Shown piece after piece: positions 1,524 through 62,719 of a stretch of DNA of 64,000 bases. Made by a program: the position numbers and the translations under genes. How positions within the stretch are numbered: position 1 is the stretch's first letter; each line of letters opens with the position of its first letter. The notes beneath the pieces are model-generated. The model did not search any database. It worked only from the letters and a program-made list of their open reading frames with translations, and was not told where the DNA came from. Origin of the DNA: Escherichia phage Ecwhy_1; sequence record MH791411.1; one strand, 5' to 3'.

Positions 1524-4500
1524 ATGAATGAACGAATTATATGGAGTCCAAAAATGACTAATAATTTTAAGTTTCAACCTACACAGATGGCTGAAGCAGT
1601 ACAGAAGAAGCTTTTCATAAAAAGATTGCCTGAGTGGATGCAAGGCTTAGAAGATATTCAGAAAGTCAGTGATGATGTTATCCAACAATGGTTTAATCCG
1701 GCTGAAAACGAATTAGTTGACGGCTACATTGGTGACATGGGTTCTCCGGCAGCAGCAGGGAACATCTTCTTACACGAGTCAACAGTCGCACGTCAACTAT
1801 ATCAGTTGTCCACTGCGTATGTCTCAAGAAATGATGACTCCAGCATTCGTTCAATTCAATTTTATGATGATCTAGTTGGCTATATGAATCATTACGGTGC
1901 ACTAACCGAAAATGAAAGCCGTTTGTTTAATGGTAAGTTCTATTCATGGACCCCACCAATTAACCCAAATAAAATGAACAACTACAGTTCATACCTATGG
2001 GATTCCAAGAATAGCTATAATATCACAACTCCAGATTATATTGTAATGGAACGTGGTGCAGAAAATGGTAACACTTGGTCACTACAAAACTTCTGGTACA
2101 CATTAGGTGAAACTTTAGAAGATGGTACTATCCTAACTGAAGAACTAATGCAAGATTCCCGTTTTGTTCGTGCTCGTGCACCAATTATCGAATACAATAA
2201 AAATATCGAACTAATGAACTACGGTACTAAATTCCGTGGGACAGTTGATTTGTTCTCTGATATTATTAAACCTGAAGATATCGTACAAAAAGATATTAAC
2301 AGCGGTATACGTATTGATGGTATTATTCCACAAGATGGTATGCGTATTCTTTTCACCAGTATTGGTAACAATGGTGAAAACAACCGAATTTATAAAGTAT
2401 ATGTTAAACGTATGCAAGATGGAACACGTGTGTATGGTCTAGCATTAGATCCAGACGAAGAATCTGAAAGCCGTCCGAGTGGTGAACCACAAGATGGTGA
2501 CGTAGTTCTTATTATCAAAGGTAATGAATTTGGTAACAGTTCCATGTATTGGGACGGTTCTCATTGGATTCAAGCACAGTCTAAAACTTCTGTGAACGTA
2601 TTTCCACAATTCCAATTGTATGACCGTAATGGTGTTAAACTAAACAACACTACTACCTATCCATCAAGTACTTTTACTGGTTCTTCACTATTTGGTTTTA
2701 AAATTAACTATAATTATGCAACTGATAGCGTTTATGGTTATAATATTGAACTAGGTGATTACAATTATTACACATATGAGAATTTCCTACAATCAACTCG
2801 TTATACTTACGAGCATTTGGGTGTGGAAGTTGAAATTGATGGACTATATTACTATAACGTAATTGGTGAAGGTAATACAATGAACCTAGAAACTGATTGG
2901 GTTCGTAGTACTGAATACTCCAAACAATATGTTAAACAAACTCCACAGGTTGAACGTACAGTAATGTTCCGCGTGTTCAGTACTGTTTATGACATGGAAA
3001 GTTTCAAAGACCCAGTTGAAGGAATGTATGCTTATGTAATTGAAGTTGACAGAACTTATCAATATTACAAAGCAGAACGTGAAACATATCTTGATTGGCA
3101 TGTTATCGTTGGTGATGGGGTACAAAGCGTTAAGTACAATCATACATTTGAATTGGCACAAAAAGTACTAGATAATTCTGATGATATTATCGAACTAGTT
3201 GTTGATGGTGTGGAAATAAAAGAATACACCAAAACTGTAGTTAATAATCAAGTACAAAGTATTACAATTGATAGCTCTGTTGATTTGGATGAAGATTCTG
3301 TTGTACAAATCAGAACTTATAGTAGCACTATCACTCCTAATAAAGAGTTGGGTGCATATGAAGTTCCAATTAACCTACAAAATAACCCATATAATTCAAA
3401 CATTGAATACATCAACCAAGGTGATTACACCCTGCACTTCCAAGATATTATTCAAAAGAATATTACATCTGGTTCTGCTGATGACTTTAACAATTACGAA
3501 GAACGTTTGGCTGCTGGTTTGGTTAATAATGGTGTAGGCACTAAAATTATTCAAAACGAAGCGTCCATGTTACCACTAATGGCACATACCGCTAATGAAG
3601 ATATTGATTTGTTTGAATCAATCATGTTTATGCAAGCAGAATACTTCCGCTTCATTAACAAGTTCAACACTCAAATGCTTCGTTTGTATGAAGAAGACCC
3701 AAGTGCTTTTCTTGGTAATAGTGCATCAAACATCGTAGATGCGATTCTAACAGCTATTAATATGGGACGTGATAGTACATTCCCATTCTACTATGACAAC
3801 GTTGCAAGCACTGCTGGGTTTATTCGTGCATTTGTCCCACCAACTCCACAGTTCTTGGGTATTTTGCAAGCTTATACACCACAAAAAGCAACATTCTTAA
3901 CTGCTGGTAGTAAATCTAGCTGTTATAATATCAGTCATACTGGTATTATTTCAAAAGCATACCGTGTTATCAATGGTGTTGATAAAATGGATGACGTAGT
4001 TTTTGAATTGGAAAATCGTATCTTTAATAGTATTGATCTTACTTTCAAGGATATTGATTATAAACCAGTACTAAACAGTGAAGACCTATTCCCAACTCCA
4101 TATTTCACTGGTACTGATTATAGTGCAGAAGAAAAGAAAACTCTATTACTACGTGGTTACATTAACTTCACAGCAACCAATGGCATTAGTAACAGTACTC
4201 ATGATTATGATGCAAATAACTGGAGAACTTGGAACTATACTGGTAGTTATTATGTTGTTGATGGTCAACGTACTGAAATTCCTGCTCGTGGTTCATGGCG
4301 TGCAATCTATACTGACCAATATGGCACATATCGTCCAGCAACCCATCCGTGGGAAATGATGGGCTTCTCTCAACGTCCTACTTGGTGGAACCAAGAATAC
4401 GAACCAACCGCAGTTCAAGTTGGTGAACGTGAGGGTGATGTTGTTTATGTGTATGAAGCACTAGTAATGAATGAAAATGGTGATTTGGTCCCAAGTGGAT

Positions 4501-56420: not shown

Positions 56421-56639
56421 TTATTTGGAATTATACAAGCAATACAAGTATACCATAGGAGCAAAATGTTCGGTATCAACTAAGTATATTAACTGGGTGT
56501 CATATATACCGTACAAATCTCGAAATTTATCTCTGTACAGCAACAATGACTTATTGTTGTGTGGGTCAACCCAGTACTTTAAGTCATTGTAGTGCAACGT
56601 GTTATTACGGTAACCTGATAATATTTGTTTTTTAGCCAA
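56421..56639 (-). CDS. Hypothetical protein (72 aa)
   Basis: Overlaps the upstream gene by 8 nt. No motif recognised. Confidence 0.55.
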   Translation of the reverse strand: MAKKQILSGYRNNTLHYNDLKYWVDPHNNKSLLLYRDKFRDLYGIYDTQLIYLVDTEHFAPMVYLYCLYNSK

Positions 56640-57009
56640 CTTTTTTACAATTACTTAGTAAATGCATGATGGCATCAGCGGTAAATGGTCCCAGTACTAA
56701 AACTTCTTCTCCATTACCGAAGATACTCAATGGTACAGATTGTTGTCCTGCTAGATATTCGATTTGTTCTAATTCGAAAATGTCATCAGCAGCATAAACA
56801 ACCTGTTCCATTTCATTATCTTTAATCCATGACTGCCAATGTTCTTTAAACTGCTTCGCTTCGTATTCCAGTACATAGTTAGGTGATTCTGGATTGTACT
56901 GATGTAGCATTGTCATACCAGCCATAACCAGTTCTTTTGGTGATGGAGTAGAATCTTTCAGTACTACGATAGCTTGGATAGTTTTAACTTTAACGTTTTG
57001 AGCAGCCAT
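56632..57009 (-). CDS. Hypothetical protein (125 aa) with weak PTH2/DUF2000-fold resemblance
   Basis: The spacing of AIVVLKD...W..W....EQVVYAADDIFELEQIEYLA....VPLSIF...EEVLVLGPFTADAIMHLLSNCKKV mimics peptidyl-tRNA hydrolase 2. The catalytic DAGxT-type residues are not evident. Confidence 0.45.
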   Translation of the reverse strand: MAAQNVKVKTIQAIVVLKDSTPSPKELVMAGMTMLHQYNPESPNYVLEYEAKQFKEHWQSWIKDNEMEQVVYAADDIFELEQIEYLAGQQSVPLSIFGNGEEVLVLGPFTADAIMHLLSNCKKVG

Positions 57010-57021
57010 TAGATACCTCTA

Positions 57022-57330
57022 TTATAGAATGATTTTGTTATCAGGAACAATCAGTGCTGGTTTTTCTTCGATAGCCTTGATTGCTTCAACATAAGCTTCA
57101 ACTAGTGCAGGGTTTGCATCGCTGATGCTAATGATGTTGGATTTATAAAAAATAACGCCTTTTTCAGAACTAATGAATTCTAGATAATCACGTAGAATGA
57201 TTTCACCTTGTTCGTCAGTACCTAGCTGTGCTGGGTAGTTAACTACTACTGCTTCTGGTGCATCATTTTGTAGAATTGCTAGTACTGGGCCAACGCTGTT
57301 GATGTTTAGTAGTTTAACGGTCATAGTCAT
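57022..57330 (-). CDS. Hypothetical protein (~102 aa)
   Basis: Track start 57339 is TTG. ATG 57330 is preceded by aAAGGActtgacaaaa. Confidence 0.6.
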   Translation of the reverse strand: MTMTVKLLNINSVGPVLAILQNDAPEAVVVNYPAQLGTDEQGEIILRDYLEFISSEKGVIFYKSNIISISDANPALVEAYVEAIKAIEEKPALIVPDNKIIL

Positions 57331-57349
57331 TTTTGTCAAGTCCTTTTGT

Positions 57350-57829
57350 TTATTTTAGAATGTATAAGTGTTTTTCTGCATTAACCAGTCTGTGGTCAAT
57401 GATTTCTTTGATAACGTTCCAGTTACCACCGCCTAAATCGGCTCCAATTTTCGGGAAGTGTACATGGATCTCTTGTGGTTCATTTTTAATGAATTCATTC
57501 ATCGAGTTAAATGCAAGGTCAATCGCATCATAACTTACATACTTCTTACCATCATTACCATAATACTCTTGTGTAATGCAGTTTGCAATAATTAAGTTAT
57601 TATTTGGTGCTGCATAGACAACTTCACCCAATTTCAAACCATTCTGATTGGTATAACGTGTATGATACACATCATATGCCAATTGGTGACGCTTTCTTAA
57701 TTCTTTTGCAAAACCAGAACCCATCTTACCCTGAGCGTTACAACCATGAGCGATAATATGTAATGCAGTTTGATCAGTAGTAACAGTACTGAATAAATCA
57801 AACAGATTACCACAATGTTCATGTATCAT
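57350..57829 (-). CDS. Macro-domain protein (ADP-ribose / Appr-1''-p binding or hydrolase)
   Basis: LHIIAHGCNAQGKMGSGFAKELRKRH is the N-terminal macro signature (h.NC.G.MG.GIA). 159 aa is a single macro-domain size. RBS cGGAGaatataATG. Confidence 0.8.
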   Translation of the reverse strand: MIHEHCGNLFDLFSTVTTDQTALHIIAHGCNAQGKMGSGFAKELRKRHQLAYDVYHTRYTNQNGLKLGEVVYAAPNNNLIIANCITQEYYGNDGKKYVSYDAIDLAFNSMNEFIKNEPQEIHVHFPKIGADLGGGNWNVIKEIIDHRLVNAEKHLYILK

Positions 57830-57840
57830 TATATTCTCCG

Positions 57841-57870
57841 AAAAGAAAGGACTCTGTAATCAGAGTCCTT
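57841..57870 (-). terminator. Rho-independent terminator upstream of the macro gene
   Basis: Minus strand aaggactctg-atta-cagagtcctt followed by tcTTTTcgg. Confidence 0.7.
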
Positions 57871-57880
57871 AATTTATATT

Positions 57881-58123
57881 TTATTCTTCTTCACCGAATC
57901 GAATTTTTTTCAATTCTTTTCGTTGTTTGCGAGCAATGGTACTTTTGTGAAGTCTATTACCACGTTTTGTGTCTTTCGTAATGTACCATGAATCTTCTGG
58001 TGCATTATAATCACAATAACCATCTTCTGTAATCGTCCCTAAGAAAGCAGACTTTTTAGGAATGGATGTTTGAGCTTTAGCAGCGAATTGGCCTTTTGCT
58101 AATTGTTCACGAAAACTGAGCAT
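57881..58123 (-). CDS. Basic hypothetical protein (~80 aa)
   Basis: Track start 58138 is TTG. ATG 58123 (MLSFREQ) follows GGGAGAtactatt. Lys/Arg-rich C-terminus (KSTIARKQRKELKKIRF). Confidence 0.55.
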   Translation of the reverse strand: MLSFREQLAKGQFAAKAQTSIPKKSAFLGTITEDGYCDYNAPEDSWYITKDTKRGNRLHKSTIARKQRKELKKIRFGEEE

Positions 58124-58168
58124 AATAGTATCTCCCAAATTGTTACGAAGAACTTGTGTTCTTCATTA

Positions 58169-58411
58169 TTATTTAGGGTTGCTCGAAACCTCTACTGAAG
58201 CGATGAATGCCAAAATATCATCTTTACTGAAAGCTTCAATAATATAAGCAACCGCTTTATCGTACTGTTCTTTCTTAGTAGTGTATTCTTTCATTTTGTG
58301 AATTTTACGTTGTGCTTTAACTTTTGCAGCTTCCATATCAGGCATTTTAAATTCAACACCCAATGTGTCAGCTAAATGTTTTGCACGAGATGATACTTTA
58401 TCAATATTCAT
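58169..58411 (-). CDS. Hypothetical protein (80 aa)
   Basis: Start overlaps the glutaredoxin stop (TAATG-type junction). Helical, Lys-rich. Confidence 0.55.
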   Translation of the reverse strand: MNIDKVSSRAKHLADTLGVEFKMPDMEAAKVKAQRKIHKMKEYTTKKEQYDKAVAYIIEAFSKDDILAFIASVEVSSNPK

Positions 58412-58659
58412 TAATTCCAGCGACCTTCTTTAAGACCTTCAACGAAACCAGTACAGCCACCTGGAACGTAAACATCGTTTACGAAAATTTGTGGAACCTG
58501 TCGTACTGGCTCACCACATAGTTCAGATAGTTTAGCACCATCAATACCAGCGGTAACAATATCGATAAACTCCATATCAAATTTGTTATTTTCACATACT
58601 GCTTTAGCAGTGTCGCAGAATTTACAACCAGTAGTGCGACCATAAATTTTAACTTTCAT
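58411..58659 (-). CDS. Glutaredoxin (Grx1 / T4 NrdC-like)
   Basis: KIYGRTTGCKFCDTAK (CxxC) and VPQIFVNDVYVPGG parallel E. coli Grx1 FGRSGCPYCVRAK and VPQIFIDQQHIGG (recalled). Confidence 0.8.
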   Translation of the reverse strand: MKVKIYGRTTGCKFCDTAKAVCENNKFDMEFIDIVTAGIDGAKLSELCGEPVRQVPQIFVNDVYVPGGCTGFVEGLKEGRWN

Positions 58660-59062
58660 TTCTTTTCCCTTTATTTCGTTGAAACATTGTAACAGCCTTT
58701 ATTATACTGTTACACATTCGTTCAGTCAAATACTTTTGACAATCTAGTACATCAATGTACATGAACTTATCCAATTCTGGGTGACTTCTACCATATCTGT
58801 TTGTGTAAGTACTTTTACACTCCAACTCTTCTGGTATAGGCTTATCTTTGGCTGTATAGAAAAATAAAACTAAACGTTTCCCCTTTCTATACGATACATC
58901 ACCAAGAAACAGAAGATCATCTTCATCGATTTCATATCCTGTCTCTTCGTAGCATTCACGTACAGCAGCCTCTTTAAATGTTTCTGTACCTTCAGTTTTA
59001 CCTTTAGGTAAGTCCCAGTGATTCTGTCCGTGTTGTATGCCCGATAAGTATCTGACCATCAC
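58649..59062 (-). CDS. Nudix hydrolase (second copy in window)
   Basis: Nudix box PKGKTEGTETFKEAAVRECYEETGYEI. GTG/ATG start with no SD, very close to an extended -10 element. Confidence 0.8.
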   Translation of the reverse strand: MMVRYLSGIQHGQNHWDLPKGKTEGTETFKEAAVRECYEETGYEIDEDDLLFLGDVSYRKGKRLVLFFYTAKDKPIPEELECKSTYTNRYGRSHPELDKFMYIDVLDCQKYLTERMCNSIIKAVTMFQRNKGKRNES

Positions 59063-59070
59063 GATAAAAT

Positions 59071-59079
59071 ATTATACCA
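59071..59079 (-). promoter_or_regulatory. Extended -10 promoter (TGgTATAAT) immediately upstream of Nudix 2
   Basis: Minus strand gctgTGgTATAATattttatcGTGATG. The -10 ends only 8-11 nt from the candidate start codons, so the mRNA may be leaderless or short-leadered. Confidence 0.35.
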
Positions 59080-59135
59080 CAGCTATAACGCATAATCTTA
59101 TCTCTTTATCATCAAGTGATGTTCAGATACTAGTA

Positions 59136-59163
59136 ATTATATCAGAAGATGTTAACTTGTCCC
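59136..59163 (-). promoter_or_regulatory. sigma70-type promoter downstream of cca
   Basis: Minus strand GGGACA-agttaacatcttctga-TATAAT (16-nt spacer, TGa extended -10). Same -35 variant as promoter 40125-40152. Confidence 0.5.
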
Positions 59164-59168
59164 AGCTT

Positions 59169-60284
59169 TTAGAACATTTGCTTGATTGCTTCAATACGCA
59201 ATTCAGCAACAAAATCACGAATCTCCGATGTTTGGAGTTCACCATCTTTCACTAACTGCTGAATATCAGGTAATTCAACATCAGTATAACGATCATAAAC
59301 TTTAATAATCAAATCTTCAAGTTCAGAATCAATTTCTTTGTTCAAAATGAAGTTTTCCAGTACTTTGTAAAGGAAATCTTCACCACCATTGTTTTTGATA
59401 TTCATATCCAGTAAGATTTGTCCCATTTCAACTGGGGTCTTCTTACGGAAGGTTTTAATATCTTCACGGAAACGCTTGATGTAATTACTAAACTTAACGT
59501 ACTTAACTGGAACCTTAATGGAACCGTTAAGTACTGAATCATTATTTACTTCTTCATTTTCAAGAAGTACTGTCCATAAGAAATATGGTTTATATTCTTC
59601 TGTACAATTTGCAGCGATAGAATCAATTAATTCCAGACGTTTCTTGGTAACTGGAACTGTAGTAAATGCCTTTTCGTAATAACCAAATTGTACCAGAGTT
59701 TTGATAAACTTGGAAGGGTTTTCTTCAGAAAGTGCTTTTTCGAATTCAACAAAAACACGATCTGGAACTAGATGGTCTAGTTCACCAGTACTAACCATAT
59801 CTTTACACATTGTCATAGTATCATCATGGATTGTAAAGTCGGAGTAACGCGTAGCGAAACGGGCCAAACGTAGAACACGCAATGGATCTTCTTTAAAGTG
59901 TTCTGATACATGACGAAGTACTTTGTTCTTGATATCAGCTTTCCCGCCATAAGGGTCGATGTGAATCTGGAGTACTGGATCATATGCAATACTATTGATT
60001 GTGAGATCACGACGATATAGATCTTGTTCTAGTGTCACACCTTTTGTATTCACTTCGAAGCCACCATATCCAGTACCAGTTTTACGCTCAGTACGGGCTA
60101 ATGCGTGTTCATTACCTTCTGGACTTAGATATACAGGGAAATCCTTACCTACTTGCTTGTATCCAATACTTTGCAAGTATTTAATATCGGATTCGGTAGC
60201 ACCGACAATAACATAATCTTTGTCTTTTGCACGGATACCCATTAAACGGTCACGAACGTAGCCACCAACCAAATACTTTTTCAT
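59169..60284 (-). CDS. cca: tRNA nucleotidyltransferase (CCA-adding enzyme, class II, no HD domain)
   Basis: LVGGYVRDRLMGIRAKDKDYVIVG (GGxVRD...DxD), RRDLTINSIAYD, DPLRVLRLARFATRY. 371 aa. Confidence 0.9.
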   Translation of the reverse strand: MKKYLVGGYVRDRLMGIRAKDKDYVIVGATESDIKYLQSIGYKQVGKDFPVYLSPEGNEHALARTERKTGTGYGGFEVNTKGVTLEQDLYRRDLTINSIAYDPVLQIHIDPYGGKADIKNKVLRHVSEHFKEDPLRVLRLARFATRYSDFTIHDDTMTMCKDMVSTGELDHLVPDRVFVEFEKALSEENPSKFIKTLVQFGYYEKAFTTVPVTKKRLELIDSIAANCTEEYKPYFLWTVLLENEEVNNDSVLNGSIKVPVKYVKFSNYIKRFREDIKTFRKKTPVEMGQILLDMNIKNNGGEDFLYKVLENFILNKEIDSELEDLIIKVYDRYTDVELPDIQQLVKDGELQTSEIRDFVAELRIEAIKQMF

Positions 60285-60285
60285 A

Positions 60286-60408
60286 TCATTCCCCCATCAA
60301 CCAATCACGTAGACGTTCCCAGAAGCCTTTTGGCTGATATTCTGGATATTCATATTCATCTGTTCCTTGCTCGGAAACACCCCAATCTTCTTCTAATACT
60401 GTAATCAC
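60286..60408 (-). CDS. Unannotated acidic micro-ORF A (40 aa), paralog of micro-ORF B
   Basis: GGAGGcattGTG start. Peptide (M)ITVLEEDWGVSEQGTDEYEYPEYQPKGFWERLRDWLMGE*. The stop lies 1 nt before the cca ATG. About 60% identical to the peptide at 61418-61543, with substitutions that preserve the frame. Confidence 0.55.
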   Translation of the reverse strand: MITVLEEDWGVSEQGTDEYEYPEYQPKGFWERLRDWLMGE

Positions 60409-60419
60409 AATGCCTCCAA

Positions 60420-60857
60420 TTAAATTAATCTATCACGTAGACGGTCGTAATATTTTGCATGTATATCTAGTATACACTGAAATGATGGATAGTCAATACT
60501 AAATGTATCATCAATGAACATGTACTGAAGAAGTGTTTCTGGTCCATTATCAACAACTGGTAATGTCCCTTCTTTTTTTGATAGGGTGTGCCACATCAAC
60601 TCACTTTCAATATGGTGAGTTGCGTATGTCAATTCAATCTTACTTTTTCGTAGTAAAATTAACAATTCATCATTGTCATCGAGTGCATTACGAAATTTAA
60701 TACGAACTGTACCCTGGAAATTATTAGTGTACATAACACGATGATGATTGTATGAAATTAAACCACGTCTTTCAGTACTGATTTCATGTTCAGCAAAGTA
60801 CTTTAACGTTTCATTAAATTTTGGAATTTTACTTGCGTCCACCAATGTAATCCTCAT
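60420..60857 (-). CDS. Small paralog-family protein (member 4)
   Basis: C-terminal LLQYMFIDDTFSIDYPSF matches YLQYQFIDDTFGFDFELY of ORF 60829. The N-terminus MRITLVD matches MRTFNID and MRNTLIK if started at ATG 60857 (track start 60863). Confidence 0.65.
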   Translation of the reverse strand: MRITLVDASKIPKFNETLKYFAEHEISTERRGLISYNHHRVMYTNNFQGTVRIKFRNALDDNDELLILLRKSKIELTYATHHIESELMWHTLSKKEGTLPVVDNGPETLLQYMFIDDTFSIDYPSFQCILDIHAKYYDRLRDRLI

Positions 60858-61236
60858 ATACATGATATACGTTCATTATACTATTATATAGTTCAAAGTC
60901 AAATCCAAATGTGTCATCAATGAACTGGTATTGCAGATATTCTTCATATGAAGCATCAATTGGTAATGATCCAGCACGAATATCATCTGATTTAAAATCG
61001 TCAATGTATCTTAATGTTATGTCTTCATCAACAGTAATATCTATCATCAACGTATCGTCACTGTACCAAAGGTTATGTATACGGATGTAAAGTTTCTTAG
61101 CACGATTAAAACTAGATACATTGGTATTGCGATGGAGTTTATCTAAGTTGAAGTAAAAACCAGGCTCGTTTTTACTTATGTTTTTCATATGTTCTGCAAT
61201 CGAATCAATTATATAATCAATGTTGAATGTTCTCAT
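60829..61236 (-). CDS. Small paralog-family protein (member 3)
   Basis: Track start 61242 is TTG. ATG 61236 overlaps the upstream stop (ATGA). See paralog motifs above. Confidence 0.65.
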   Translation of the reverse strand: MRTFNIDYIIDSIAEHMKNISKNEPGFYFNLDKLHRNTNVSSFNRAKKLYIRIHNLWYSDDTLMIDITVDEDITLRYIDDFKSDDIRAGSLPIDASYEEYLQYQFIDDTFGFDFELYNSIMNVYHVYEDYIGGRK

Positions 61237-61418
61237 AAACAAATCTCATAGCGGTTTGTGTTTGGATTGTAGCAATAGGTATCATTAATTTTAACACCAG
61301 GTTTAAGTGTTATTGTTGTTCCTACTTCAGTACTGGGTTCTGCATCACAATAAATCATCACACCAACGCCACAGATTAAAGCTAAGATACAAATAATAGC
61401 ACATATTGTATATTCCAT
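61233..61418 (-). CDS. Small membrane protein (61 aa)
   Basis: MEYTICAIICILALICGVGVMIYC is one hydrophobic helix, followed by a Cys-containing soluble tail. ATG 61418 overlaps the micro-ORF B stop (TGATG); the track start 61436 lies inside micro-ORF B. Confidence 0.55.
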   Translation of the reverse strand: MEYTICAIICILALICGVGVMIYCDAEPSTEVGTTITLKPGVKINDTYCYNPNTNRYEICL

Positions 61419-61543
61419 CACTCCCCCATCAGCCAATCAAAGAGACGTTCCAAGAAGCCATTAGGCTTGTATTCTGGTTCTTTGTTCACGTCGGTTTCTT
61501 GTTCATAAACACCCAAATCTTCTTCAAGTATAATTGTATTCAT
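61418..61543 (-). CDS. Unannotated acidic micro-ORF B (41 aa), paralog of micro-ORF A
   Basis: The ATG overlaps the upstream stop (TAATG). Peptide MNTIILEEDLGVYEQETDVNKEPEYKPNGFLERLFDWLMGE*. The stop overlaps the next ATG (TGATG). Confidence 0.6.
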   Translation of the reverse strand: MNTIILEEDLGVYEQETDVNKEPEYKPNGFLERLFDWLMGE

Positions 61544-61914
61544 TATATATTATACTCTATTATACCATCATCACTTTCACCAGACAACCACTTAATGTAA
61601 TTTACTTTGTAGAAATTAATCAATGCATAAGTGCTGTACTCAATCAACAAGTGATCTCTCAAGAATTCGTCTTGAGCATATCCATCTTCATCCAAATCTG
61701 TTGGAATATCAGTTTCTTTGTCTTGAATGTGTAAAGTTATTGTGTCTTTTGTTATACAAATTGTTATATGATTACAAATAGTAATGATGATTATGCTATA
61801 TGTTCTATTGAAATATATTGTGAAATCTTCATTAATATTATATCTTCGACTTTCTTCATATTTCTGATATGGGTCGAAATGTGATAAATTAACTTTAATT
61901 AATGTATTTCTCAA
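61543..61914 (-). CDS. Small paralog-family protein (member 2, divergent)
   Basis: Probable TTG start at 61914 after GAGGTGtaag, giving (M)RNTLIKVN. The C-terminal DEFLRDHLLIEYSTYALINFY weakly matches the family motif. Confidence 0.5.
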   Translation of the reverse strand: MRNTLIKVNLSHFDPYQKYEESRRYNINEDFTIYFNRTYSIIIITICNHITICITKDTITLHIQDKETDIPTDLDEDGYAQDEFLRDHLLIEYSTYALINFYKVNYIKWLSGESDDGIIEYNI

Positions 61915-61926
61915 CTTACACCTCAA

Positions 61927-62307
61927 TCATATAAAGTAATTATACATTTTATTGTACAATATAAAAAGGTCTTTAACATTATCATAAGTAATATCAGATA
62001 CATCATGAATTAATGATAACTGGAAAAATGATGCTTCGTCTATCTCTACTGGGATTATAACATCATAGTCTTCGTCAATTTTATGGGTGTAGTATTTTAT
62101 GTGATCAGCATTCAACACAAGGTTGTATTTTGTATCATCTTCAATTAATCCGACAAATTGAGATTTTTGATTAATAAAAAATCCAATCCCAACACAACGG
62201 TTATCTGGATATGGATAGTACCATCTATTAATAACTAGGTGTTCAGGTAAGTCCATATCATGTGTTGATATTAAAGATTTTACAATTCCCATCCAGGAAT
62301 AATTCAT
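61927..62307 (-). CDS. Small paralog-family protein (member 1, divergent)
   Basis: The C-terminal EASFFQLSLIHDVSDITYDNV follows the pattern of ..LQY.FIDDTF..D. RBS tatGGAGttttaattATG. Confidence 0.55.
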   Translation of the reverse strand: MNYSWMGIVKSLISTHDMDLPEHLVINRWYYPYPDNRCVGIGFFINQKSQFVGLIEDDTKYNLVLNADHIKYYTHKIDEDYDVIIPVEIDEASFFQLSLIHDVSDITYDNVKDLFILYNKMYNYFI

Positions 62308-62320
62308 AATTAAAACTCCA

Positions 62321-62352
62321 TAAGAAAAGGGACAGAATAATCTCTGTCCCTT
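62321..62352 (-). terminator. Rho-independent terminator after hpf
   Basis: Minus strand aagggacag-agattatt-ctgtccctt followed by TTcTTat. Confidence 0.65.
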
Positions 62353-62353
62353 T

Positions 62354-62382
62354 ATTATATCTTACTCTTCGTCTTCAGTCAA
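62354..62382 (-). promoter_or_regulatory. sigma70-type promoter straddling the hpf stop codon
   Basis: Minus strand TTGACT-gaagacgaagagtaaga-TATAAT (17-nt spacer). The predicted start site falls inside the 5' arm of the terminator hairpin. Confidence 0.55.
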
Positions 62383-62694
62383 GTCTTCTTGAACTGGATG
62401 TTCGGGGTGGTTACGGCGATGCAATTTGATGCTTTTGTCTTTACCTAAGACAGTTTCCATTTTTTCAAATGAATCACCAATTGCTTTGTATAAATCTGCA
62501 TCATCGGCGGTGACAATCTTACCACCTGATGTTAAAGTTACGGAATATTGATTCTTATGCTCTTTCTTCACATGAACACCGATATAAAGTACTGAAGAAT
62601 CACTAAACTTCGTTAGTGCATTTGCTTCTGCATGAATCGCGTCATTGATTGCTGGAGTAATATCAACATTACCTTGGATAACTAAATCTAGCAT
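62362..62694 (-). CDS. hpf: Ribosome-associated inhibitor / hibernation factor (short HPF-RaiA/YfiA family)
   Basis: 110 aa. VDITPAINDAIHAEANALTKF and DADLYKAIGDSFEKMETVLGK parallel recalled E. coli YfiA [21 protein letters not shown] and [21 protein letters not shown]. The acidic C-terminal tail QEDLTEDEE resembles the YfiA EEVEEE tail. Confidence 0.8.
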   Translation of the reverse strand: MLDLVIQGNVDITPAINDAIHAEANALTKFSDSSVLYIGVHVKKEHKNQYSVTLTSGGKIVTADDADLYKAIGDSFEKMETVLGKDKSIKLHRRNHPEHPVQEDLTEDEE

Positions 62695-62719
62695 AATTTA
62701 CCTACCTTTTTTTTTAGTT

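Follow-up and report, generated by a model that had tools for sequence, protein, structure and literature searches.

Small phage peptides that inhibit or take over the host, such as T7 Gp0.4, lambda Kil and T4 Stp, and leader or arrest peptides, such as TnaC, SecM and ErmCL, are among the closest functionally described counterparts of the locus treated here, which consists of two micro open reading frames (micro-ORFs), A and B, in Escherichia phage Ecwhy_1 (sequence record MH791411.1). We analysed a stretch of 64,000 nucleotides (nt) from this record, hereafter called the window, which belongs to a jumbo coliphage of the Asteriusvirus type (121Q / PBECO4 / Rak2-like). With the small inhibitors the encoded peptide shares its size class (26-60 amino acids, aa), its stand-alone form and its location in a variable accessory region, but there is no sequence similarity and the comparison is one of analogy only. 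With the leader peptides it shares a short ORF that ends at the next start and a Shine-Dalgarno sequence (SD) within its last codons. Unlike them, A is followed by an inconstant downstream gene, is best conserved at its N-terminus, has a strong SD of its own and carries a tail, from the conserved motif to the stop, that varies between members (MGE, GL, NQKF, GRILFGKRETK and others).

By sequence, the closest database entry is phrog_34272, a 40-position family listed in PHROGs v4 as being of unknown function, together with hypothetical proteins of related genomes. A corresponds to the hypothetical protein 121Q gp538 (YP_009102125) and is annotated in most relatives, and in Escherichia phage Turkey3 both genes are coding sequences (CDSs) for hypothetical proteins (A, XMR01183; B, XMR01179). 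A agrees with these entries in family, in its full-length match and in genomic position, and B is a diverged member of phrog_34272 without the invariant tryptophan. An initial annotation of the window, made from its letters alone, had called both ORFs unannotated, which is true solely of its own ORF track, given the GenBank CDSs in Turkey3 and 121Q. The genes are already known, both as GenBank hypothetical proteins and as a PHROG family, and their existence is of little novelty. Searches of the micro-protein against Pfam, NCBIfam and PDB sequences returned nothing except the C-terminal helix of Nup53, the sole PDB match and a non-significant one (E 1.9), and literature searched for the motif, the PHROG identifier and Asteriusvirus makes no mention of the micro-protein.

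We consider it probable that A is a genuine micro-protein gene whose product is a two-part binder, that B is an imported and decaying copy, and that the tight junctions around both are ordinary gene packing. The elements central to this reading lie in a region (59000-63000) with 99.4% identity to Turkey3 and 83-97% identity to ~35 further records:

60286-60408, minus strand: micro-ORF A, GTG start, 40 aa, acidic (net charge -8), member of phrog_34272
60413-60417, minus strand: GGAGG, SD of A, 4 nt 5' of the start codon
61418-61543, minus strand: micro-ORF B, ATG start, 41 aa, second copy, frame open here

Both ORFs are present where the initial annotation had placed them, with agreeing translations, and both run on the minus strand. 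Its claim that they align end to end without a break in frame was also borne out; the one gap, close to the N-terminus, spans a single codon in frame, and there is no frameshift. The two share 65% aa identity and 77% nt identity, with a proportion of synonymous differences (pS) of 0.62. The phrog_34272 hidden Markov model (HMM) matches A with E 3.2e-31 (residues 1-40 of 40) and B with E 3.5e-16 (residues 5-41). When the family HMM was run on the window's six-frame ORFs of at least 30 aa, A (E 1e-25) and B (E 7e-15) were followed by a next match of E=1. Judged by these scores, the likeness between A and B is far above chance.

The pattern of substitution argues that A is a genuine protein-coding gene for a very acidic micro-protein of 40 aa. 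It is intact in ~35 Asteriusvirus records, and pairwise Nei-Gojobori ratios of nonsynonymous to synonymous change (dN/dS) among the A-type copies and the single copy of JNE01/Turkey5 (12 Asteriusvirus genomes) range from 0.03 to 0.2, at pS values of up to 0.66. The micro-ORF gene lies within a variable island that extends from HPF (ribosome-hibernation factor, 62362-62694) to cca, and the corresponding ratios are 0.09-0.10 for cca and 0.2-0.45 for the island genes; the constraint on A resembles that on the adjacent CCA enzyme and is tighter than that on the genes of the island. This comparison, which the initial annotation had proposed as a check, thus speaks for purifying selection on A, with the frame intact in relatives. 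The GGAGG SD is kept in all A-type copies examined, and the start codon switches between ATG and GTG. Across genera, the Leu, Gly, Val and Ser codons of the invariant N-terminal motif vary synonymously, including TCN/AGY serine switches, and it is this synonymous turnover within an invariant motif which indicates that selection acts on the protein and not on the nucleotides. The earlier suggestion that both ORFs could be real micro-proteins is therefore upheld for A, on the strength of its dN/dS, its own SD and a protein conserved across genera, and is not upheld for B, which appears to be decaying.

Homologues outside Asteriusvirus occur in Xanthomonas phage XaC1 (46 aa), in Salmonella phage Munch and Klebsiella phage fENko-Kae01 (47 aa), in Erwinia phage Hallingskeid (39 aa), and in IMG/VR and Logan metagenome contigs. 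When 1.84 billion representative proteins were searched exhaustively with an HMM, 14 clusters only were found. Of these, 13 consist of peptides of 38-53 aa that stand alone, and the remaining one is a frameshifted 65-aa copy of B from CMSTMSU; no fusion of the micro-protein to a larger protein was found among the 14. On these matches, the phrog_34272 family is confined to Rak2-like jumbo phages. In RaK2, GAP32 and Eneladusvirus, which have orthologous cca genes (58-67% identity), the micro-protein was not recognised within ~2.5 kb on either side of cca.

All members begin with the motif M-I-x-h-L-E-E-[DN]-W-G-V-[ST], where h stands for a hydrophobic residue; its L-E-E-[DN]-W-G-V portion, within the first 11 residues, is present in A and broken in B by W9L. 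The motif is followed by an acidic linker in which D, E, Y and P abound and whose length varies between members, and then by a C-terminal segment of the form [FSW]-[WLVY]-x-[RK]-[LIV]-x-[DE]-[WFLV]-[LI], again in all members. This segment is amphipathic, its hydrophobic moment lying at 0.5-0.8 throughout the family, and the net charge of the whole peptide ranges from -4 to -10 across the family. The AlphaFold2 (AF2) model of the 40-aa peptide A, based on a 13-sequence alignment, contains a helix at residues 27-38 only and leaves the N-terminal motif disordered in isolation; the quality of the model does not suffice for a fold search. The architecture leads us to infer that the product acts in trans and binds through two elements. 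The N-terminal linear motif would fold upon binding, a flexible acidic tether would join it to the C-terminal amphipathic helix, and motif and helix together would clamp a protein partner, a design that, by analogy, is typical of small phage inhibitors and adaptors.

An additional lead comes from the C-terminal helix, which recalls the C-terminal membrane-targeting amphipathic helices of MinD (KGFLKRLFGG; PMC5471200) and FtsA (GSWIKRLNSWLRKEF; PMC9098913). As in those proteins, the phage helix is C-terminal, with the pattern G-F-[LW]-x-R-L-x-x-W-L / RLxxWL, and its hydrophobic moment is comparable to their 0.45-0.81. Unlike theirs, its charge is -1 to +1 instead of +3 to +4, and the cationic face is absent. 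Binding to anionic membranes is further disfavoured by the net negative charge of the whole peptide. Homology to MinD, FtsA or Nup53 has no statistical support, and the resemblance is best taken as a lead and not as a classification. A more far-reaching proposal is that phrog_34272 represents a new class of jumbo-phage effectors, which would inhibit or redirect a host machine by means of the acidic-aromatic N-terminal motif and the MinD/FtsA-like helix. The target could be a host protein that is membrane-associated or serves division; alternatively, it could be a defence nuclease directed at tRNA, against which the neighbouring CCA/Nudix/HPF module would act as well. We hold this proposal to be quite unlikely.

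Likenesses to neighbouring proteins were also considered. By eye, the micro-protein (VLEEDWGV..YPEYQ..FWERLRDWL) resembles proteins of the island (FIDDTFSI..YPSFQ..YYDRLRDRLI), but homology to the C-terminal module of the 120-150-aa island proteins found no support (hhalign E 0.23; HMM E 1.3 or worse). A 12-nt in-frame string, CGTCTACGTGAT (R-L-R-D), is common to A (~60301-60312) and to the upstream 147-aa gene (~60432-60443), both on the minus strand. It sits at the C-terminal ends of the two products (FWERLRDWLMGE in A and YYDRLRDRLI in the 147-aa gene, each followed by the stop), and the chance expectation is ~0.003. The string could stem from past local recombination or be a coincidence; homology is unsupported by profile comparison. 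In GAP32 and Eneladusvirus, the proteins encoded just 5' of cca end in a pattern like M-[LF]-D-E-Y-x-G-x-D ... F-W-G-S-L-I-x-x-D-I-L, which recalls both motifs of the micro-protein with a far longer linker, and may be a fused or diverged form of the micro-protein; homology to them was likewise unsupported (hhalign E 0.13; HMM E 1.3). These proteins upstream of cca lie, in the GAP32 and Eneladusvirus loci, at:

2289-2498 of L019: GAP32_185
2115-2498 of L020: protein upstream of cca
2124-2504 of L021: protein upstream of cca

The second copy has a different history. The two ORFs had been described as paralogous, and their homology stands, on aa identity and on the family HMM; a local duplication of A does not, as B is closer to JNE01. 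Sequence comparison indicates that B is a xenologous second allele from a JNE01-like lineage and not a local copy of A. It is 90.5% identical in nt to the single copy of JNE01/Turkey5 (pS 0.18), and the neighbouring 123/127-aa ORF is 93.6% identical in nt to those of JNE01 and Turkey5, against nt identities to JNE01 of 73% for the 126-aa gene, 78% for the 61-aa gene and 76% for cca, which flank them. The genes concerned are:

61927-62307, minus strand: 126-aa island gene, phrog_36582, left border of the putative imported cassette
61543-61914, minus strand: 123-aa ORF (mechanical call to 61926, 127 aa), which appears to have moved together with B
61233-61418, minus strand: 61-aa predicted membrane protein, phrog_4189, whose ATG overlaps the TGA of B
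59169-60284, minus strand: cca, CCA tRNA nucleotidyltransferase, directly 3' of A

The cassette, made up of the 123-aa gene and the micro-ORF, lies exactly from the end of the 126-aa gene to the ATG of the 61-aa gene. There it takes the place of a 13-nt spacer with GGAG seen in 121Q-type genomes, in which the 123/127-aa ORF was not found. Its carriers are Turkey3, fEgEco12, WPEC5, EC.P1, CMSTMSU and ph0011, and it is absent from the 121Q-type genomes and also from the close relatives WPEC3, vB_Ec-M-J and BF17. Recombination with a JNE01-like phage would have brought the cassette in between the 126-aa and 61-aa genes. B would then have been redundant and free to decay, with its 3' end still giving the 61-aa gene its SD and the stop/start overlap.

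With A as the outgroup to polarise changes, the B lineage shows 12 derived nonsynonymous or nonsense changes and 3-4 synonymous ones, where ~4.5 to 1 is expected under neutrality, which suggests that B is decaying and evolves close to neutrally. Five of the 12 are common to the B copies (S12Y, G15E, E18V, Y19N, K27N), three are seen in the window's B only (M4I, W9L, W30L) and four in that of ph0011 only (W9*, E13*, T16I, E23K). The same sites are unchanged in JNE01/Turkey5 (J-type), where the only aa difference is Thr/Ile at position 2. The tryptophan at position 9, invariant in every other family member examined, is lost in B, and B, which no longer has the GGAG that precedes the JNE01 copy, is without an SD. 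In ph0011, the orthologue of B reads MNTIMLEED*GVY*QEID..., with two in-frame stops. Stops or frameshifts in homologous regions, which the initial annotation had named as the mark of conservation at the DNA or RNA level only, thus occur for B (in ph0011) and not for A.

Some details of individual records bear on this copy. Missing from the GenBank annotation of ph0011 (OP557969, L008) are the 61-aa gene, the pseudogene of B, and A itself. When the window is compared with ph0011, the 123-aa gene differs by 0 synonymous and 6 nonsynonymous changes, and a further 4 nonsynonymous changes and 2 stops are found in B. In CMSTMSU (MH494197, UNVERIFIED), B is frameshifted at its last codons and the 65-aa product is labelled 'tRNA nucleotidyltransferase'; four places in this record match the family, which suggests an assembly duplication.

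The junctions of both micro-ORFs are tight, and the initial annotation had described them correctly. The stops abut or overlap the next start (TGA-t-ATG before cca for A; for B, a TGA that overlaps the ATG of the 61-aa gene by 1 base), and the ATG of B overlaps the TAA of the 123-aa ORF. The G-runs in the last codons were said to double as SDs of the downstream genes; their spacing fits, and the GenBank record of UE-S1 annotates a ribosome-binding site there:

60289-60295, minus strand: GGGGGAA in the last codons of A, SD-like for the cca start
61421-61427, minus strand: GGGGGAG in the last codons of B, SD of the 61-aa gene

This use of the last codons is real in Asteriusvirus and not kept elsewhere, the SD of the Munch cca being in an 11-nt spacer; in the 121Q type, the 61-aa gene is served instead by the GGAG within its spacer. 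Of the 48 same-strand junctions in a 50-kb part of the Turkey3 annotation, 14 overlap or have a gap of at most 3 nt. Tight junctions are thus commonplace in this genome and do not account for the conservation of the peptide. A terminator scan found none between a hairpin that follows HPF and cca, which makes it probable that A and B share a polycistronic transcript. The hairpin (62326-62353) has 11 bp, contains GC pairs and lies just 3' of HPF, and a terminator is annotated at the equivalent place in G17 and UE-S1. It is overlapped by a promoter-like site on the minus strand (62382-62354: TTGACT, 17 nt, TATAAT; 11/12 matches), and hairpin and site together probably form the transcript boundary upstream of the island; sigma-70-like sites were no more frequent than chance in the promoter scan.

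Given such junctions, both ORFs could be seen as mere coupling or leader ORFs that deliver ribosomes to cca and the 61-aa gene and encode a functionless peptide. The stop/start overlap or 1-nt spacing and the SD-like G-run in the last codons speak for this, as does the fact that B lacks an SD and begins on the stop of the preceding ORF. We nevertheless find it very improbable: the peptide is under strong purifying selection with synonymous change saturated, its best-conserved part, the N-terminus, lies far from the junction, and tight junctions are generic in the genome. Moreover, the gene downstream can be cca, the 61-aa gene, a 355-aa gene (A4, TH47) or a 128-aa gene (Hallingskeid type), the next start may overlap by as much as 4 nt or follow after a gap of up to 11 nt, and the tail beyond the conserved Leu has 2 to 13 residues, unlike that of arrest peptides. 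A dedicated leader or coupling role fails to explain the conservation because the downstream gene differs between lineages. Of the coupling proposed initially, the tight junctions therefore stand and the dedicated role does not, and the idea of conserved leader peptides is not supported, both a constant downstream gene and a C-terminal arrest motif at a fixed distance being absent. Conservation at the level of DNA or RNA, whether of a repeat, of a site of recombination or of an RNA structure, is suggested by the two ~125-nt direct copies that flank a 1-kb segment. It is largely refuted, and we would be very surprised to see it return: there is no Rfam match, RNA folding z-scores of -0.8 and -0.03 are not unusual, A and B have no more than 77% nt identity, and change is concentrated at third codon positions, with aa motifs kept across genera whose DNA has diverged. 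A further alternative takes the micro-protein as an accessory subunit or regulator of the CCA enzyme, for example in tRNA 3'-end repair under tRNA-targeting host defences. The gene is directly 5' of cca in the majority of lineages, namely the Asteriusvirus A-type, XaC1, Munch, fENko-Kae01 and the loci L007, L025, L026 and L027, and it sits in a tRNA/translation block (HPF, cca, Nudix, peptidyl-tRNA hydrolase). On the other hand, other genes part it from cca in JNE01, Turkey5, A4, TH47 and the Hallingskeid type, the orthologous cca of RaK2, GAP32 and Eneladusvirus comes with no detected micro-protein, and synteny says little about interaction when the whole block is conserved. In view of these separated or micro-protein-less lineages, the link between micro-ORF and cca is frequent and not obligatory, and we doubt that the peptide serves the CCA enzyme.

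Several observations weigh against our own reading of a selected micro-protein gene A and a decaying copy B. At 67% identity, the CCA enzyme of RaK2 is a closer one than that of Munch (59%), and RaK2 is without a recognisable micro-protein, so the peptide would be dispensable in some lineages. The AF2 model of peptide A is of low confidence (predicted local distance difference test, pLDDT, of 61). In a proteome of fENko-Kae01 material of >300 kDa, HPF, the CCA enzyme, Nudix and Grx were seen and the micro-protein was not; this negative carries little weight and is uninformative for a free 47-aa peptide. The counts behind the decay of B are small (41 codons), its frame is still open, and it is identical in five close genomes, such that a residual or new function is possible. 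In its stronger form, this last point makes B a functional, diverged paralogue, with a new or partitioned role alongside the 61-aa membrane protein. The open 41-codon frame argues for it, as do a C-terminal helix that is mostly kept and the position of the single micro-ORF of JNE01/Turkey5 directly before the 61-aa gene. The five identical copies carry no independent information, however, because their genomes are 94-99% identical. Together with the two nonsense codons in ph0011, the loss of W9 and of the SD, the approximately neutral ratio of change and the lack of the cassette in close relatives, this leaves a functional B unlikely.

The surroundings of the micro-ORFs are variable in gene content. 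Between the 61-aa gene and A, the window carries:

60420-61236, minus strand: two phrog_20693 paralogues (140/147 aa and 135/137 aa)

An island of this kind is seen in all Rak2-like phages (window 60420-62307, minus strand; L004, L005, L018, L022), with 1-6 genes of ~118-150 aa. The superfamily they form includes the 126-, 123/127-, 137- and 147-aa ORFs of the window, Munch 217/218, Hallingskeid 472-478 and RaK2 ORF030, and is linked mainly by a common C-terminal module of ~45 aa, P..[DE]EE.[FY][FL]Q.S.[IL].D...[IL].Y..Y; its proteins have no match in Pfam or NCBIfam. For the 135-aa phrog_20693 protein (60829-61236, minus strand), one of five AF2 models reached a pLDDT of 76 and a predicted template modelling (TM) score of 0.74, the other four being poor. 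It consists of a helix, a six-stranded sheet and three helices, and a Foldseek search against the PDB gave nothing significant, the best match being p32/gC1qR-like (E 0.13, TM 0.33). From HPF onwards, and with genes other than HPF, cca and the micro-ORF given by their length in aa, the orders are:

JNE01 and Turkey5: HPF, 130, 123, micro-ORF, 61, cca
121Q type: HPF, 126, 61, 136, 140, micro-ORF, cca
window: HPF, 126, 123/127, B, 61, 137, 147, A, cca
XaC1, L007 and L026: HPF, 57-59, micro-ORF, cca
Munch: HPF, 136, 135, micro-ORF, cca
A4 and TH47: a 355-aa gene between micro-ORF and cca
Hallingskeid type: micro-ORF, three island genes, cca

The 355-aa insertion that splits the micro-ORF from cca lies at 2633-3700 of the phage A4 locus (L011) and is the same in TH47 (L014). 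On a larger scale, genes for tRNA and translation upkeep cluster at ~56600-62700, according to the window and the Turkey3 annotation. They comprise HPF/RaiA, the CCA-adding enzyme, a Nudix hydrolase (annotated as being of the mRNA decapping type), a glutaredoxin, a macro-domain protein and a peptidyl-tRNA hydrolase, and in related contigs an RNA ligase lies close by.

Phage proteins of very small size often escape notice, and the ones examined so far have frequently turned out to inhibit the machinery of the host strongly. A 40-aa peptide that is constrained like the adjacent enzyme and kept across several genera of 350-kb phages is thus a reasonable candidate for functional study. The pair of A and B additionally illustrates how cassette recombination between related jumbo phages can yield an apparent paralogue, and how a redundant copy may decay while its 3' end is retained to bind ribosomes for the gene that follows. 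Both points fit present understanding, and the main value of the locus is that it offers a well-constrained jumbo-phage micro-protein candidate.

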